Source of the DNA: a virus
Lineage: Duplodnaviria > Heunggongvirae > Uroviricota > Caudoviricetes
DNA length: 10,178 nucleotides
Reading direction: 5' to 3' (one strand)
IMG/VR virus record: IMGVR_UViG_3300035208_005701
In this document: one piece after another, positions 3,219-10,178 of the stretch
How the letters are laid out: every line of letters starts with the position of its first letter
Position numbering within the stretch: position 1 is the stretch's first letter
Program-made: the position numbers and the translations under genes
The notes under the pieces: generated by a model
What the model saw: only the letters and a program-made list of their open reading frames with translations
Databases searched by the model: none
What the model was told of the DNA's origin: nothing

Positions 3219-4628
3219 TTAAATAGATCTATCTATCTGATCTTCTAATTCTTTAAAAAGATCACTTAATTTGTTACTAAATAATTCATTGTAAAATATT
3301 ATCATATCACTTTCTAATTTAGCTAAAGGAAAATTAGTTACTTTCTTTTCATTACTAAAACTAACATATGTGTTTCTAGATAATTTTCCTATTATAGATG
3401 AGTATCTATCATAAGCTAAAATTTTATTTTTAAATCCAAGGAATGTTTCAAAAGTATCAAGGAATTCAGTTAAATTTTTAATTTTATAAGTTGTTTTTAA
3501 TATAGGTTTTTCAATGTTATAATATAATAACATCTTTTTGATTATTGGAAATCTATCTTTGAAGCTTTCAGGCAAAATAGAATACAATAAAATATTTAGT
3601 AAATAACTATTCGATACAGGTATAGTTAAAAAATGTCTATAAGGAATATCTAAAACTTTACTTAAAATTGGATAAGTAATGTAATTAGCGAATAGAGACA
3701 TTTCTTTTAAACCAGAAACTGTATTTTTAAATTTATCAATATCTATATCAAGATCTTCTAATCTGTTATAAGCAGATAATAATAATTTACTAATTGTATC
3801 ATTATGCGCATAACTACTTAAATTATCTTTACCTTGAACAGAATATACATCTTGAGTATTAATTGTTTCAGAATATATTATTGTATCTTTGTAGATATTT
3901 TTTAATATCCATTTAATTGATTCATCAATTACACTTATCAAGTACGGAATTGGATTTAAAGTTGTTTCGCATGTTACTAAAATATTATTCATAATAAAAT
4001 TAAAGATAGTCATAATGTGCATATCAGTAGTTTTACAATAAACTGATTTTATATAATCCCACATATATTTATCTGTATGGTTATATTCGTAAGTTTTGCT
4101 ACTAACAATCTTAAATAATTTATAGATGATATCATTATTAGCTATTTTTGATACTAGTTTATTATATATTTCTTTATGAAATTTAGATGGTAATTGTAAA
4201 AAAGTATCTTGAGAAAAAATACAATAAAGTTTTAAATAATTTGATACTTGAACTATTTTTTTAATTTCTACATCATCAAAAAATATTGAGTTTTTTGATA
4301 TTTTTGATCTATTAATATAATCAGAAAAATTTATGTTGCATATTTCTAAGTATTTATCAGTTAACTCCATTAACTTATCTATATTGTTTTTAATGATTGA
4401 ATATTCTCTGTTGCTTTTTATATAATCTCTTATTAATCCAATATACCAGTTATCAAACTCATCTCCTAATTTTTTACTGCAATCTTCTATAAAATCTGAA
4501 AGTTTGTTGAATTTATTTGTTACTGGAGAAAATGCTAAATTTAAATCTATAATTTTTTCTAATTCGCCTTTTTTGTTTTTATTTGACATGCTTACTTTTC
4601 TTTTGCCTTCAGTTTTAAATACTATCAT
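3219..4628 (-). CDS. Probable promoter-specificity (sigma-like) subunit of a phage non-virion RNA polymerase, AR9 gp226/phiKZ gp68-like
   Basis: 469 aa with an AAGGAG RBS. KLFKIVSSKTYEYNHTDKYMWDYIK and NPIPYLISVIDESIKWIL resemble segments of AR9 gp226 as I recall them, and the size and the neighbouring RNAP gene fit. Not verified by alignment. Confidence 0.55.
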   Translation of the reverse strand: MIVFKTEGKRKVSMSNKNKKGELEKIIDLNLAFSPVTNKFNKLSDFIEDCSKKLGDEFDNWYIGLIRDYIKSNREYSIIKNNIDKLMELTDKYLEICNINFSDYINRSKISKNSIFFDDVEIKKIVQVSNYLKLYCIFSQDTFLQLPSKFHKEIYNKLVSKIANNDIIYKLFKIVSSKTYEYNHTDKYMWDYIKSVYCKTTDMHIMTIFNFIMNNILVTCETTLNPIPYLISVIDESIKWILKNIYKDTIIYSETINTQDVYSVQGKDNLSSYAHNDTISKLLLSAYNRLEDLDIDIDKFKNTVSGLKEMSLFANYITYPILSKVLDIPYRHFLTIPVSNSYLLNILLYSILPESFKDRFPIIKKMLLYYNIEKPILKTTYKIKNLTEFLDTFETFLGFKNKILAYDRYSSIIGKLSRNTYVSFSNEKKVTNFPLAKLESDMIIFYNELFSNKLSDLFKELEDQIDRSI

Positions 4629-5529: not shown

Positions 5530-6750
5530 ATGATAATATTGTTAGATATGGATAGTTTTGTAAAAGATTTAAAACCGGTTTCGTCTTCTGAATATATAGC
5601 TGGTAAAGGAATTCAGTTCCATCCAGATGGTTTGTTTTCAGAAAGTATTTTTGGATTGTTTGATTCGAAAGATAGAAAAGATTTGTATTCCTATATAGAA
5701 TTAAATTGTAAAGTCCTTCATCCAGCAATGTGGAACGTGTTAAGAAGATTAAATAGAAAAATATTGTCAGCTATTAATAAAGAAGCTTCATTTTCAATAA
5801 ATTCTGCTGGTGAATTAGAGCAGAATCCTGATGGAGAAATTAAAGGTTTGTCTTCAGTTATTGAGAATTTTGATAAGATAGTTTTTAAATCAGATGGAAA
5901 TACCTTTAGAGAAGATTTGATAAAAATGGTGAAGTATTATCAGAATAAAAATATGTTGTTTTTATCCAAAGTCCTTGTTATTCCTGCTTATTATAGAGAG
6001 GCAGAATTTGATCAGATTAATCAGCAAATGAGAGTTGATCCTTTAAATGAATATTATGTTAAAATAATTAGACAGTCTTTGCAACTCCAAAGTATTAGAA
6101 CCGGAGAAGTTTTTGATGTACTAGCTACTAAAATGAATAATTTGGTTTTAGATTTATATGAGTATTTAGTTGCTAAAATAGGAAAGAAAAGTGGTATCAT
6201 TAGAAGTAAAGTTCTTGGAAAACGAATTGATTTTTCTGCTAGAGCTGTGATTTCTGGTGGTTCTGATCAAATTGGAGTAGACCAAATTGGTGTCCCTTTT
6301 AGAATTTTAGTGAAGATTTTTGAGCCGTTCCTATTGTTTGATCTGTTGAAGAGTGGTGCAGTTTCTCAAGGAGAATTGGGTAGAGTTTTAAAGGAGTTTA
6401 ATAGTTCCACTTTATCAGTGTTGAATCTTAGAAATTTATTTACTGGTATTTATCATGGAGATGAAATTCCTGTTGAATTAGAATCCATGTTGAAAGATTC
6501 AGTTAATAGAGTGATTGGTGATAAAGTAGTTATTGCTAAAAGAGATCCTGCTTTGCATACCGAATCTGTTCAGGCTTTTTATCCAGTCATGGTTAGTGGA
6601 AGTACTATCCGTTTGAGTATATTAAAATGTGGTGGATTTTCTGCCGATTTTGATGGAGACTCGATTAATGGTTCCATTGGAATAAGTTATGGAGAAAATA
6701 AAACCAAATGGATAGGACAAATTTCCGAATTAGAAAATGCGGAGGTTTGA
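5530..6750 (+). CDS. rpoC: Phage multisubunit RNA polymerase beta-prime-like subunit, N-terminal part up to the catalytic DFDGD motif, fused to a putative 29-aa N-intein
   Basis: Conserved beta-prime motifs appear in order: DGLFSESIFG, YIEL..KVLHP, VIPAYYR, GKKSGIIRSKVLGKRIDFSARAVIS, IGVP, KRDPALH, SADFDGD (6640-6660). AAGGA RBS upstream. Confidence 0.9.
   Translation: MIILLDMDSFVKDLKPVSSSEYIAGKGIQFHPDGLFSESIFGLFDSKDRKDLYSYIELNCKVLHPAMWNVLRRLNRKILSAINKEASFSINSAGELEQNPDGEIKGLSSVIENFDKIVFKSDGNTFREDLIKMVKYYQNKNMLFLSKVLVIPAYYREAEFDQINQQMRVDPLNEYYVKIIRQSLQLQSIRTGEVFDVLATKMNNLVLDLYEYLVAKIGKKSGIIRSKVLGKRIDFSARAVISGGSDQIGVDQIGVPFRILVKIFEPFLLFDLLKSGAVSQGELGRVLKEFNSSTLSVLNLRNLFTGIYHGDEIPVELESMLKDSVNRVIGDKVVIAKRDPALHTESVQAFYPVMVSGSTIRLSILKCGGFSADFDGDSINGSIGISYGENKTKWIGQISELENAEV
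6661..6750 (+). other. Putative N-terminal half (IntN, 29 aa) of an atypically split intein
   Basis: Directly after DFDGD the protein reads SINGSIGISYGENKTKWIGQISELENAEV-stop. It starts with Ser and has the intein block-A pattern [CS]-I-x-G-x-x-x-I...I-x-E-L instead of the QMAVH/EMNLH-type sequence expected in beta-prime. Confidence 0.65.
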
Positions 6751-6752
6751 TA

Positions 6753-6768
6753 GCTGATTTTGATGGTG
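6753..6768 (+). repeat. Second, out-of-frame copy of the ADFDG-coding sequence
   Basis: GCTGATTTTGATGGTG (6753-6768) versus GCCGATTTTGATGGAG (6643-6658): 14/16 identical, and both differences fall at synonymous third positions. Confidence 0.7.
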
Positions 6769-6788
6769 TACTCCTTTAAAATAAAAGA

Positions 6789-6798
6789 GAATAAATAT
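6789..6798 (+). promoter_or_regulatory. Putative promoter motif GAATAAATAT upstream of the homing endonuclease gene
   Basis: Matches the GAAYAAATAT consensus and is intergenic, 37 nt before the ATG at 6836. Confidence 0.4.
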
Positions 6799-6835
6799 TA
6801 AAAGATGTATTTGTGGTAAAGAAAATGAAAATTTA

Positions 6836-7789
6836 ATGAAAATTAGAATGCATTCTAGTAAATGTCGTGCTCATGGTCAATATAGAGATGAAATAATAAC
6901 AAAAGAATTTTTGTTGGATAATTATATTAATCAAAATTTATCAATAGATGAAATTATTAATAAATTAAATAATAAATTTAGTTCTTCTGAAATAGAAATG
7001 TATATGAAAAAATTTGAAATAGGTACTAGAATATGCAAATGCGGAGAAATTTGTATAGAAGGAGTTTCATATGGAAGTCATATAGGACATTGTAAAGTTT
7101 ATAAAGATTATAAAAATAACATATTAAGTGAAGAATTTTTATTAGAAAATTATATTAATAAACGATATCCATGTGGATATATTTCAGAACTTTTGAAAAA
7201 TGAGTTTACTGCACATGAAATTAAGATGAATCTTAAAAAATTTAATATTAAAATAAGAACTAATTCAGAAAATATTAGTACAGATTTTGTACAAAATAAA
7301 TTGAAAACTACAATGTTAGAAAAATATGGGGTAGAAAATTGTAGTCAATCAGAAGAAGTAAAACAGAAAAAAGTAGATACTATGATGGATAATTTTGGAG
7401 TTTCTCATCATTTGAAATTAGAATCTCAAATGGATAAACAACGACAAACCAATTTGGATAGATATGGAAAAGATAATGTTTCTCAAGTAAAAGAAATTCA
7501 TTTATTAAAAGAATCTACTTTTCAGGAAAATTATGGAGTTAGAAATATTTTTTGTGATGCTCAAATGATGAAGCAATATTGGATGGATAAATTTGGAGTA
7601 GATAATCCTTCAAAAGTTTTAGAGGTTGAATTAAAAAAACAAGATACTATTTTTAAAAATTTTGGATTGTTAACTACTCGTTATCCAGCTTCAAAAAATT
7701 CACAAATTTTATTTGATAAGATATATAAAAATCTTACAGAATCTATTAAACCATTTTGTTATTATTATAATCTAAATAAAGAACCATGA
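6836..7789 (+). pseudogene. 5' part of a Vsr-like homing endonuclease gene (repeat-rich putative DNA-binding region), truncated by IS607 insertion after codon 316
   Basis: Two FLLxNYIN helical repeats, a CKC...H..HC cluster, and ~23-aa (Y/F)GVxN repeats typical of N-terminal regions of phage Vsr-like endonucleases. It ends at CYYYNLNKE plus IS-derived P-stop and rejoins 9764 in frame. Confidence 0.75.
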
Positions 7790-7822
7790 TAAAACATATG
7801 AAATCATTTAATTTCAATTATT

Positions 7823-9070
7823 TTAACTCACTTTTAAAACAGATGTTTTCAAAGTATCAATTGAAACAATTTTAGTTGTTTCTAACAGCTTTGGTTCCAG
7901 CTGCTTGAATTTATAATATATATTTATTGCGGAATTTGTATCCCGTTCTAATACCATTCCGCAATTTTTGCAATTGTAAATTCTGTCACTAAGAGTCATT
8001 TCTTGTAAGTGATTACAAGTGTTGCATTTTTTAGTTGTATTTGATTCGTTAATTTTATAGTACCTATTCCCACTGAATGTGTTACTTTTGTATTGTAACA
8101 TGTTAACGAATAAGGAAATAGGCCAAAATTGATTCTTGTATTTGTTTATGTTTTTGATTTTAGATTGAGTGTTTTTCTTGATGCCTTTTAAATCTCCTAC
8201 TACAATAGTATTAAAATTATCTGTTAATTTCTTAGAGATTTTATGAAGAAAAGTTCTTTTCTTGTTAGTTTCTTTGGATTGTAATCTGTTAATAGTTCTA
8301 TTTAAATGTTTCCATTTTCTAGACCATTTTTTCTTTTTATTTAGAAGTGATTGAATATGTTCTTTTCTTTTTGTTAATTTTGGATATTTTAAATTAGCTC
8401 CAGAAACTTTTAAAATTTCATTAGTTTCTGGAATATATCCAGTAATTAAATTCTTTTGTCCTAAATCAATAAAAATTGATTTGTCAGAATTATTTTCTTT
8501 TAATTTTGGATCAATACAAAAATGGAAATAAAAACATTTATGAGATGGGTTATAAATTAATTTATGACCTTCTTTTGTAAATGGTAAAGTGAGTAAATTG
8601 AATTTTTTAGTATTATATTTACAAATTATTTGAATTTTTTTATGTTCTTGAAAAGTAAGTTCTACAATCGAATTATTAATAATTTTTATGGTACAAGAAT
8701 TTTTTAAAAAAGAAAAATATAAAGGTTGAAAAAATCTTGTAGATTTGTATCGATTTGGAAACTGTACAGATTTATCAAATTTTTTGGCTTCATAAAATCC
8801 TTTAATTGAGTTGAAAAGTGTATCGGTTATACCGATCACTTGCCAACTCATTAAATAAGAAGGTATTATGCCTAGTTTTTTAGCACTAAATTCTTTTTGC
8901 AATTCATATTTCGAAATATAATTTTTAGTTATTAAATTTCGTTTTTGTTCAAAATCATCTTTTAAAACATTTACCATTGCATTATAATATTTACAAATTT
9001 CAATAGACGCAAATTTTAGATAATTTTGATCATCTTTAGAAATTTTACATTTAATTTGAAACGTTTTCAT
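7823..9070 (-). CDS. tnpB: TnpB RNA-guided nuclease (IS607-associated) with a rearranged RuvC-II
   Basis: RuvC-I FIDLG (Asp at 8465-8467), VVGDL at the canonical RuvC-II position, INESNTT, zinc finger CNTC...CKNC, and RuvC-III RDTNSAINI (Asp at 7940-7942). Confidence 0.9.
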   Translation of the reverse strand: MKTFQIKCKISKDDQNYLKFASIEICKYYNAMVNVLKDDFEQKRNLITKNYISKYELQKEFSAKKLGIIPSYLMSWQVIGITDTLFNSIKGFYEAKKFDKSVQFPNRYKSTRFFQPLYFSFLKNSCTIKIINNSIVELTFQEHKKIQIICKYNTKKFNLLTLPFTKEGHKLIYNPSHKCFYFHFCIDPKLKENNSDKSIFIDLGQKNLITGYIPETNEILKVSGANLKYPKLTKRKEHIQSLLNKKKKWSRKWKHLNRTINRLQSKETNKKRTFLHKISKKLTDNFNTIVVGDLKGIKKNTQSKIKNINKYKNQFWPISLFVNMLQYKSNTFSGNRYYKINESNTTKKCNTCNHLQEMTLSDRIYNCKNCGMVLERDTNSAINIYYKFKQLEPKLLETTKIVSIDTLKTSVLKVS

Positions 9071-9686
9071 TTATAAATAATTCTTTTTTAATAATATTTA
9101 ATTTTTGTTTTCCTCTTCTAGAACCATATAATTTCATACTAAAATGATGAATTATAGCAATTAAATCATTAGTAATTTCTTTTCTATAATCCAATGTTTC
9201 AGATTCATTTAATATTATAATATTAGTATTCATATATGAACATATATGTTTAATTAATTCAAAACCGAATCTTAAAAGTCTATCTTTGTATTCAATAATT
9301 ATATTTTCAACTTGATCAGATAATATTAATTGTATTAGTTTTAGAAAATTGACTCGATTAAAATTCATTCCGGAAGCAATATCTTCTAGAATCAAATCAA
9401 TTTGCATTCCTTTACTAGCGCAAAAATCTTGTAATCGTTGTTTCTGCCGTTCAAGATTCTCTTTCTGCAAAGATGTACTGACTCTACAATAAATAACAGT
9501 TTTTCTTTTTATTTTTAGTTTTTTGGTATTACTATTGACAAATTGTTCTAAATCAAATTCAGAAAATCTCCTATGACCATTCGGAAGAACAGTATATTTA
9601 ATAATATTTTTAGTGCACCATATATGCAAAGTGGTATTAGCAATATTTAAAATTTTAGATGCTTGAGAGATAGTATACAGTTTCAT
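9051..9686 (-). CDS. tnpA: IS607 TnpA transposase (N-terminal MerR-like HTH plus serine recombinase domain)
   Basis: N-terminal HTH ending in LPNGHRRF, catalytic YCRVST, LERQ, DIASGMNFNR, EYKDRLLRFGFELI. AAGGAG RBS upstream. Confidence 0.93.
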   Translation of the reverse strand: MKLYTISQASKILNIANTTLHIWCTKNIIKYTVLPNGHRRFSEFDLEQFVNSNTKKLKIKRKTVIYCRVSTSLQKENLERQKQRLQDFCASKGMQIDLILEDIASGMNFNRVNFLKLIQLILSDQVENIIIEYKDRLLRFGFELIKHICSYMNTNIIILNESETLDYRKEITNDLIAIIHHFSMKLYGSRRGKQKLNIIKKELFINENVSN

Positions 9687-9688
9687 TA

Positions 9689-9729
9689 GTACTCCTTTAT
9701 ATTTATTCTGAATAAATATAAAGGAGTAC
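9689..9729. repeat. Perfect 41-bp palindrome (20-bp arms, 1-nt centre) covering the tnpA RBS
   Basis: GTACTCCTTTATATTTATTC-T-GAATAAATATAAAGGAGTAC; the arms are exact reverse complements. Confidence 0.95.
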
Positions 9730-9763
9730 GAACTAATATAAAAACGTTAACTATAAGAATGAA

Positions 9764-10090
9764 TATTATTTGAATTATCAAACATTCAAATATGTATATC
9801 TTGATTTTTCATTAATATCTGATACTTTTAAAATAAGTATAGAATTTAATGGAGATTTTTGGCATATGAATCCTGAAAAATATAAATCTACAGATATTAA
9901 TAGTGTTACAAAAAGAACTGCTGAAGATACATGGAACAGAGATGAAAAAAGAAACAAAGAGATAGAACTACAAGGATTCAAACATTTAATAATATGGGAA
10001 TCCGAGGTTAACCATTCACCAGAACAAACATTAAATAAATGTTTATCTTTTATAAAAGAGCATTGTCTAGAATCAATAATTGGAGTTTAA
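9764..10090 (+). pseudogene. 3' part of the interrupted homing endonuclease gene: Vsr/DUF559-like nuclease domain
   Basis: YLDF...ISIEFNGDFWHMNP...WNRDEKRNKEIELQGFKHLIIWESE is a Vsr-like catalytic signature. It is in frame with 6836-7783 once the IS is removed, and the TTG at 9770 has no good RBS of its own. Confidence 0.8.
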
Positions 10091-10178
10091 ATGAAACTTT
10101 TTAAAAAATTAGGACGACATATTAGACCGAATGGTGTATATGTTACTCATTTTGAACCAACAACTCAGATTTATATAA
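10091..10178 (+). CDS. Start of an ORF (MKLFKKLGRHIRPNGVYVTHFEPTTQIYI...), candidate C-intein half fused to the rest of beta-prime; 3'-truncated by the window
   Basis: The ATG directly follows the endonuclease stop codon, with GGAG at 10082-10085. The frame is open to the window end. Its identity is inferred from position and a loose likeness to the region following intein block A. Confidence 0.5.
   Translation, partial: MKLFKKLGRHIRPNGVYVTHFEPTTQIYI

Follow-up and report, generated by a model that had tools for sequence, protein, structure and literature searches.

The 10,178-nucleotide stretch of viral DNA analysed here in full (Caudoviricetes; IMG/VR record IMGVR_UViG_3300035208_005701; referred to as the window) belongs to an uncultured large phage in which an RNA polymerase (RNAP) gene is parted by a split intein, a homing-nuclease gene lies between the two halves, and a transposon of the IS607 family of insertion sequences (IS) sits within the nuclease gene. 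The window is AT-rich and phage-like (GC about 21–36%) and also contains an amidase gene. [quoted passage not shown] The features of the nested locus are as follows (aa, amino acids; HTH, helix-turn-helix).

5530–6660 (+): RNAP beta' N-extein, whose C-terminal end is the catalytic ADFDGD (Pfam RNA_pol_Rpb1_2, 1.1e-19; PHROG RNA polymerase subunit, 1.4e-46; unsplit homologues go on ...DFDGDQMA...)
6661–6750 (+): N-intein fragment of 29 codons plus stop, with blocks A and N2 only and Ser directly after DFDGD (counterparts of 32 aa in L001 and 31 aa in L008)
6797–7783 (+): 5ʹ part of the homing-nuclease gene, with zinc knuckles, HTH-like modules, DUF7487 repeats (Pfam, 4.8e-19) and the initial ~32 nuclease-domain residues
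7781–9763 (−): IS607-family element of 1,980 bp (7781–9760 up to 7784–9763, the ambiguity being the shared GAA; borders from an IS-free orthologue)
7781–7965 (−): right end of the element with a candidate omega-RNA scaffold, overlapping the tnpB 3ʹ end (conserved terminus and covariation)
7823–9070 (−): tnpB, RNA-guided nuclease, 415 aa (Pfam OrfB_IS605 and Cas12f1-like_TNB; NCBIfam guided_TnpB, 104.5 bits, cutoff 100)
9051–9686 (−): tnpA, IS607-type serine transposase, 211 aa (NCBIfam transpos_IS607 equivalog, 193.3 bits, cutoff 110)
9686–9763 (−): left end of the element with a palindrome at 9686–9732 (23-bp arms; inverted repeat I3, 96% complementary; conserved in L010)
9764–10090 (+): 3ʹ part of the homing-nuclease gene, the Vsr-like catalytic core with YLDF, IEFNGDFWH and WESE (Pfam MTES_1575 and DUF559, both below cutoff)
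10091–10178 (+): 5ʹ start (ATG 10091) of the C-intein and RNAP beta' C-extein gene; MKLFKKLGRHIRPNG... agrees with the initial residues of the L001 and L008 ORFs (MKLF...)

Insertion junction and IS-free relatives

The two parts of the nuclease gene correspond to ORFs at 6836–7789 (+, 317 aa) and 9770–10090 (+, in a frame open from 9764), and GAA is present both at 7781–7783 and at 9761–9763. As the earlier note had stated, when 7784–9763 was excised in silico, 316 and 108 codons were joined into a 424-codon frame with a single terminal stop. At the base composition of this DNA (~24% GC), the chance of a stop-free frame is about 1.4e-5 for the 108 codons and 2e-16 for the 316 codons.

A homology search with the 5ʹ part yielded P0002, a 444-aa protein encoded on contig L001, which is 60% identical to the 5ʹ part and 65% identical to the 3ʹ part. 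Upon global alignment with the fused product, P0002 was gap-free for 40 residues on each side of the junction, where it reads ...FYYNLNKEYYLKIDFNKYIYLDF... (NLNKEYYLK) and the fused window reads ...YYYNLNKE/YYLNYQTFKYVYLDF... (NLNKE/YYLN). The fused DNA and L001 formed one alignment of 2,583 bp with 74.9% identity that crosses the junction collinearly and without an insertion or deletion there; L001 has AAATAAAGAATATTATTTA in place of the predicted empty site AAATAAAGAATATTATTTG, with 18/19 bases in agreement, and carries a single GAA at the insertion site with no target duplication. More distant nuclease genes, represented by P0003 (40% identity, 9 contigs) and P0005 (35% identity, 13 contigs, including the loci L008 and L009), are flanked by beta' parts of ~407 aa (N-part) and 781 aa (C-part) and are all intact, and the order of RNAP N-part, intact nuclease (444–471 aa) and RNAP C-part is kept in three related phage lineages. 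Since relatives have intact nucleases at the same locus, the IS insertion is derived and specific to the window lineage. At the level of sequence, these orthologues prove the junction and the three-layer nesting.

Two metagenome runs of separate studies, one on groundwater (2022; X1, probably the source sample) and one on a landfill (2018), gave Logan contigs that matched the window without differences, bridging the right junction by hundreds of bases and crossing the left junction by only 27 nt. Only the occupied allele was observed in these two metagenomes, which are four years apart. An excised circle would be expected to carry the joint ...TATAAGAAT-GAA-CCATGATAAA...; the joints that do occur in the contigs were apparently spurious, with sides of 20–24 nt in AT-rich sequence.

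The contigs of both runs break at 7781/7788–7810, and a 5.9-kb contig of X1 ends with 7788–7867 (80 nt) with 3 mismatches; the sample therefore holds a second, related right end, in the community or in the genome.

The IS607 element, its ends and its candidate guide RNA

The insert is a genuine IS607-family element by its sequence, in line with what the earlier note had proposed. In addition to the equivalog match listed above, TnpA has the HTH first, in the inverted domain order typical of the family (Pfam HTH_17 at residues 3–53, followed by Resolvase at 64–191) and contains an RVSTSLQ motif, and terminal inverted repeats are lacking, with no inverted pair found between 7781–7810 and 9735–9763. 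An IStron reading was ruled out, as Rfam matches at E≤1, and with them any group I intron, were absent from 7781–9763 and the element runs antisense to the gene that it interrupts. No match was obtained in the INPHARED phage collection, and none in IMG/VR by exact DNA or TnpB peptides; exact look-ups of the proteins encoded in the window were likewise without a hit.

TnpB scored 70.6 against the more specific IS607_TnpB model, for which the cutoff is 350. Its D202, E342 and D377 and four zinc-finger Cys residues are invariant among 11 relatives. At the usual RuvC-II Glu position (8195–8197) there is a Gly, with a Glu 50 codons on (8045–8047), both of which are likewise invariant in the 11 relatives; this arrangement fits the rearranged active site of Fanzor-related TnpBs. 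The left-end palindrome contains the tnpA Shine-Dalgarno sequence and GAATAAATAT in both directions (9699(−) and 9710(+)). As putative roles, it might mask the ribosome site of tnpA in read-through RNA and drive transcription outward, in the direction of the RNAP C-part gene.

Related elements were found in other contexts (L002, L003, L004, L005–L007, L010, L011 and L012), among them a tnpA and tnpB pair on a 93-kb phage-like contig (L002) and an element whose TnpA is 89% identical in a different flank (L010). Their similarity to the window starts 7 nt inside the predicted left border and stops 8 nt inside the right border. Five of them (L002, L004, L005, L010 and L012) end collinear with the predicted borders, after which the flanks diverge, so the ends of the relatives agree with those read from the IS-free orthologue. 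The right terminus ...ATGG(T/A)TC is kept in 5/6 aligned elements, L003 having diverged there.

The earlier note had taken GAA as the crossover core. It is a true identity between the two junctions, but it is wider than the core: the bases identical at both junctions are TTC in the window (GAA on the + strand), ATC/ATC in L002 and TT/TT in L012. Because the relatives share only ATC or TT, the core is probably a dinucleotide within the GAA/TTC (TT or TC), not GG. L010 shares AATATTC with the window immediately outside the left end, which, on thin data, hints at a target or target-adjacent motif (TAM) preference.

Across six elements, the terminal 185 nt share a set of helices, and 17/40 consensus pairs keep pairing despite two-sided changes, in DNA that is mostly TnpB-coding. 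On the pattern of characterised TnpB systems, the guide is predicted to be the 16 nt past the right end (7780 down to 7765), antisense of the nuclease codons before the junction. The L001 allele has one mismatch to this predicted guide. GGTTC at the right terminus and TATTC in the left flank have TTC in common.

L012, a complete related IS607 element (TnpA 66% and TnpB 56% identical), and the IS-free RNAP locus L001 come from the same JGI sample, 3300037067; such elements and vacant nuclease alleles therefore co-occur.

The interrupted nuclease and the fractured polymerase

In the AlphaFold model of P0002, built on 40 homologues and with a mean predicted local distance difference test (pLDDT) of 88, residues 304–438 form the C-terminal nuclease domain. 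This domain matched the catalytic domain of I-Bth0305I (3r3p_A; Z 10.7, root-mean-square deviation (rmsd) 2.5, 97 residues aligned) and Vsr (1cw0_A; Z 10.5, rmsd 2.8, 114 residues aligned). The fold match came from a second structure comparison, the whole 444-aa model giving only weak E-values in Foldseek, and a sequence search of the nuclease against PDB chains gave no match. D350 and E363 are near-invariant across the 40 homologues, and the window retains YLDF, IEFNGDFWH and WESE. The earlier note had placed the IS between the DNA-binding and catalytic domains. The junction corresponds, however, to E336/Y337 of P0002, past the first helices and strand of the nuclease domain and ahead of the strands bearing YLDF and IEFNGDFWH and of all catalytic residues; judged by the model, the IS splits the catalytic domain ~32 residues in, not at the DNA-binding boundary.

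The rejoined 424-aa nuclease predicted by the earlier note holds as a reading frame but not at its start. The ATG start common to L001 and L008 is ATT in the window (6797–6799), with a weaker Shine-Dalgarno sequence, and the first ATG of the window, at 6836, is non-orthologous. The in-frame codons 6785–6835 still code for the first Cys pair of the N-terminal zinc knuckle; a product started at 6836 would lose two Cys of the first zinc knuckle, and one started at the ATT would be 437 aa long and probably translated poorly. Because the orthologous ATG is ATT, excision alone may not necessarily restore full nuclease activity.

Tajima-type relative-rate tests of the split gene against P0002 with three outgroups gave unique changes of 29:41, 34:27 and 29:25 (window:P0002; all p>0.15). 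The lack of excess change in the split gene, together with the intact catalytic motifs, fits a recent insertion, as the earlier note had suggested from the two stop-free halves. By this comparison, the insertion is young relative to the split from the nearest IS-free orthologue.

The outer layer is an ORF for a compact multisubunit-type RNAP beta' (5530–6750), in which the ADFDGD ends at 6660 and is followed by 29 codons beginning with Ser and a stop. The first 29 codons of the C-intein and C-extein ORF lie inside the window; its full form is known from L001 and L008, where the downstream ORF has a 151-aa intein-like extension (…VSQDHSMIV…, …GYDFTV…) ending in ...VQD/TMALYVP and then continues into beta' (Rpb1 domains 3 and 5). 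The motifs place the split of the intein unusually early, after block N2 and ahead of block B, because the N-fragment has blocks A and N2 only. No Hint domain or any other Pfam family was found in the C-intein fragment by a Pfam search, and a sequence search found no solved structures matching it. When the L001 N-fragment and the 151-aa C-fragment were modelled as a complex, the ipSAE was 0.74 (runs 0.74, 0.80 and 0.57; best control 0.00), a mark attained by 51/78 solved complexes and 2/108 mismatched pairs, although this score may reflect likeness to solved split inteins and not binding; at least 80% of contacts agreed between runs, and the partner pLDDT was at least 64. By sequence, the outer layout is that of a "fractured gene", with the host N-part and N-intein, a same-strand nuclease gene, and the C-intein and host C-part. 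The unsplit, intein-less beta' homologues P0175 and P0176 carry ...ADFDGDQMA..., and potential homing targets therefore exist in related phages.

Two short features precede the nuclease gene.

6753–6768 (+): repeat of the DFDG-coding string, GCTGATTTTGATG, shortly after the N-intein stop, in the same place in L001 (about 1092–1108) and L008 (about 3435–3448)
6789–6798 (+): promoter-like motif GAATAAATAT upstream of the nuclease gene (motif count)

The copy of the DFDG-coding repeat, 13–16 nt long, is kept in three lineages whose nucleases are only 35–60% identical, and may serve the nuclease as an operator or half-site. The window has 5 occurrences of GAAYAAATAT (2678, 4731, 6789, 9699(−) and 9710(+)) versus 0.41 expected, either 20–45 nt before starts or facing out of the IS, and the motif also precedes tnpA in L002, L010 and L012; it resembles T4-type late promoters and is a candidate promoter of the phage. 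The arms of the left-end palindrome (9689–9699(+) and 9719–9729(−)) consist of the 11-mer GTACTCCTTTA, which occurs once more at 6768–6778, by the DFDG repeat (3 versus 0.15 expected). A diverged version stands at the same spot in L001, and the 11-mer therefore predates the IS.

Probable origin of the nested insertion and known counterparts

From the observed anatomy, borders, family membership, IS-free orthologues and absence of decay, we consider it likely that an IS607 element inserted into the nuclease gene of a fractured RNAP, as one selfish element parasitising another and not as a regulated switch. In the proposed course of events, the RNAP beta' would have been cut at its catalytic DFDGD by the split intein, with a free-standing Vsr-like (EDxHD-type) nuclease gene between the intein halves. 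The 1,980-bp transposon would then have entered that gene in antisense and inactivated the enzyme. The insertion would be tolerated in an important locus because the homing nuclease is presumed dispensable for protein splicing and for the phage, making the site a "safe harbour", in agreement with the idea in the earlier note of a dispensable spot inside an essential locus.

For a characterised IS607-family element, TnpA, which requires core dinucleotides that match, yields double-stranded circles and a scarless donor joint, TnpB then cleaves this joint, which promotes re-copying, and excision reached ~5% overnight in a plasmid assay (10.1101/2023.11.20.567912). By analogy, TnpA could excise the present element as a circle, with the donor resealed scarlessly and the nuclease frame regained, and TnpB, with the 16-nt right-flank guide, could cut the restored site, so that the IS would be re-copied from a sister genome or copied into IS-free alleles of co-infecting relatives. 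We infer TnpA and TnpB activity, guide use and neutrality for the phage.

Several observations weigh against this reading. Neither the empty-site joint (7783 to 9764; AAATAAAGAATATTATTTG) nor the circle joint was found in the contigs of the two runs, contigs being assemblies that drop rare variants. The ATT start and weaker Shine-Dalgarno sequence could mean that the nuclease gene had been decaying or down-tuned, whether ahead of the insertion or since. The comparison of left ends covered four relatives only, and the probable core dinucleotide is unlike the GG of studied IS607 elements. In addition, the TTC shared by the right terminus and the left flank offers TnpB no evident way of sparing the occupied site.

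The same lost ATG and weakened Shine-Dalgarno sequence would be expected if the nuclease gene had long been, or already was, a decaying pseudogene, with the IS an inert passenger and the open frames leftovers, and the identity of the occupied allele in two habitats agrees with such a relic. Nevertheless, 424 stop-free codons at ~24% GC would have to persist by chance (1.4e-5 for the short part alone), the catalytic motifs are all retained without rate acceleration relative to the intact orthologue, and neither tnpA nor tnpB nor the structured right end is damaged, so that we hold a dead relic to be improbable. The earlier note had proposed that excision could work as an on/off switch for homing; in such a reversible switch, frequent excision and reinsertion would toggle the nuclease in the phage population under selection. 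Scarless IS607 excision at the frequency cited above would permit this, both gene halves are intact and without excess change, and vacant DFDGD target alleles exist in relatives. However, same-site reinsertion is not a property of IS607 elements, whose target specificity is weak, and TnpB would be expected to destroy vacated sites, as the published TnpB cuts the vacated joint. The two metagenomes held the occupied allele only, with neither kind of excision joint in their contigs, the nuclease start codon is ATT, and a recent insertion explains the lack of decay equally well; we did not retain the switch, which appears quite doubtful.

Domestication would give the fragments themselves a function, with the truncated N-fragment kept as a regulator, for example one binding the DFDG-coding repeat, and the left-end motif of the IS driving the RNAP C-part gene. 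I-TevI is a precedent of a homing nuclease that represses its own promoter. The N-fragment retains all DNA-binding modules, three lineages conserve the upstream copy of the target-site string, and GAATAAATAT faces outward at 9710–9719. Yet the repeat is also found in IS-free loci with intact nucleases, and is hence independent of the truncation, and the outward motif is confined to the window and the L010 lineage of the IS, leaving domestication very unlikely in our judgement. An assembly artefact, in which the IS was mis-joined into the nuclease gene via a repeat, could account for the contig breaks at 7781/7788–7810 in both runs and for the X1 contig that shares 7788–7867 with 3 mismatches, but in each of two independent runs long contigs span the right junction and mismatch-free sequence extends 27 nt over the left one, and both flanks fit the orthologous gene exactly; we give such an error hardly any credence.

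A bolder version of the selfish-element reading, for which the chances seem low though not trivial, is that the IS607 element is a hyperparasite, moving among co-infecting phages through RNA-guided homing into the nuclease coding sequence, where its predicted guide matches intact alleles (with the one mismatch to L001), and with occasional scarless excision transiently reviving homing. If true, a protein-guided drive, carried by an intein in the RNAP catalytic centre, would be disabled by an RNA-guided drive that also travels on it.

Read as selfish insertion, the locus would be a clean natural case of selfish elements stacked in three layers where an important enzyme has its active site, with a history traceable down to the base thanks to the IS-free orthologues. 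It offers a concrete setting in which to test how TnpB, an RNA-guided nuclease, comes into conflict with a protein homing nuclease, would add a phage lineage of IS607 whose junction core is not GG and whose TnpB active site is rearranged, and suggests how a compact phage genome may tolerate a transposon by housing it inside another parasite. An IS607 element inside a homing-nuclease gene, or a fractured phage RNAP, was not reported in the literature searched, the coverage of which was incomplete. Each layer is of a known kind; the combination is new to that literature and implies no new mechanism.

Compared with IS607 of Helicobacter pylori and the CboIStron of Zedaveinyte et al. (10.1101/2023.11.20.567912; structural work in PMC6188088), the element resembles IS607 elements in its serine TnpA with an N-terminal HTH, the overlapping downstream tnpB, a length of ~2 kb, the lack of inverted terminal repeats and of a target duplication, the short identity at both junctions, and a structured right end over the tnpB 3ʹ end. 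It differs from those studied in its TTC junction (core probably TT or TC, not GG), and from the CboIStron in having no group I intron. In a further difference, its TnpB has a Gly at the usual RuvC-II Glu with the invariant Glu 50 residues later, and it resides in an AT-rich large phage whose promoter-like motif stands in its left end. I-Bth0305I, the prototype of the EDxHD homing-endonuclease family (PMC3239194; PDB 3R3P), shares with the nuclease a C-terminal Vsr-like fold (97/97 residues aligned) in which acidic and His residues are conserved, and a DNA-binding region of several modules at the N-terminus. The N-terminal modules of the window nuclease are, however, zinc knuckles and DUF7487 repeats instead of NUMOD motifs, and the gene is free-standing inside a split intein instead of lying in a group I intron.

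Dassa et al. 2009 (PMC2677866), who also introduced the Vsr-like nuclease family, listed eight DNA enzymes as hosts of fractured genes, RNAP not among them. Those genes share with the window an N-part with N-intein, a short non-coding gap, a free-standing Vsr-like nuclease gene on the same strand, a phage setting, and a C-intein with host C-part that abuts the nuclease stop. In contrast to them, the host here is RNAP beta' at its catalytic DFDGD, the nuclease gene is itself interrupted, and the intein is split early (N-part 29–32 aa, C-part 151 aa) and ends in Asp, not Asn.

Atypically split inteins of the AceL-TerL type, found in phage genes from environmental DNA, have an N-fragment of ~25–30 residues and a long C-fragment. 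The present intein differs from AceL-TerL in its host protein and in having Ser1 and a C-terminal Asp.

In P0174, a 1391-aa beta' homologue, the DFDGD is vacant, but a LAGLIDADG-type intein lies at a second conserved site (...IMK/C...HN/TFHTGGA), and this phage RNAP family therefore hosts inteins at at least two sites.

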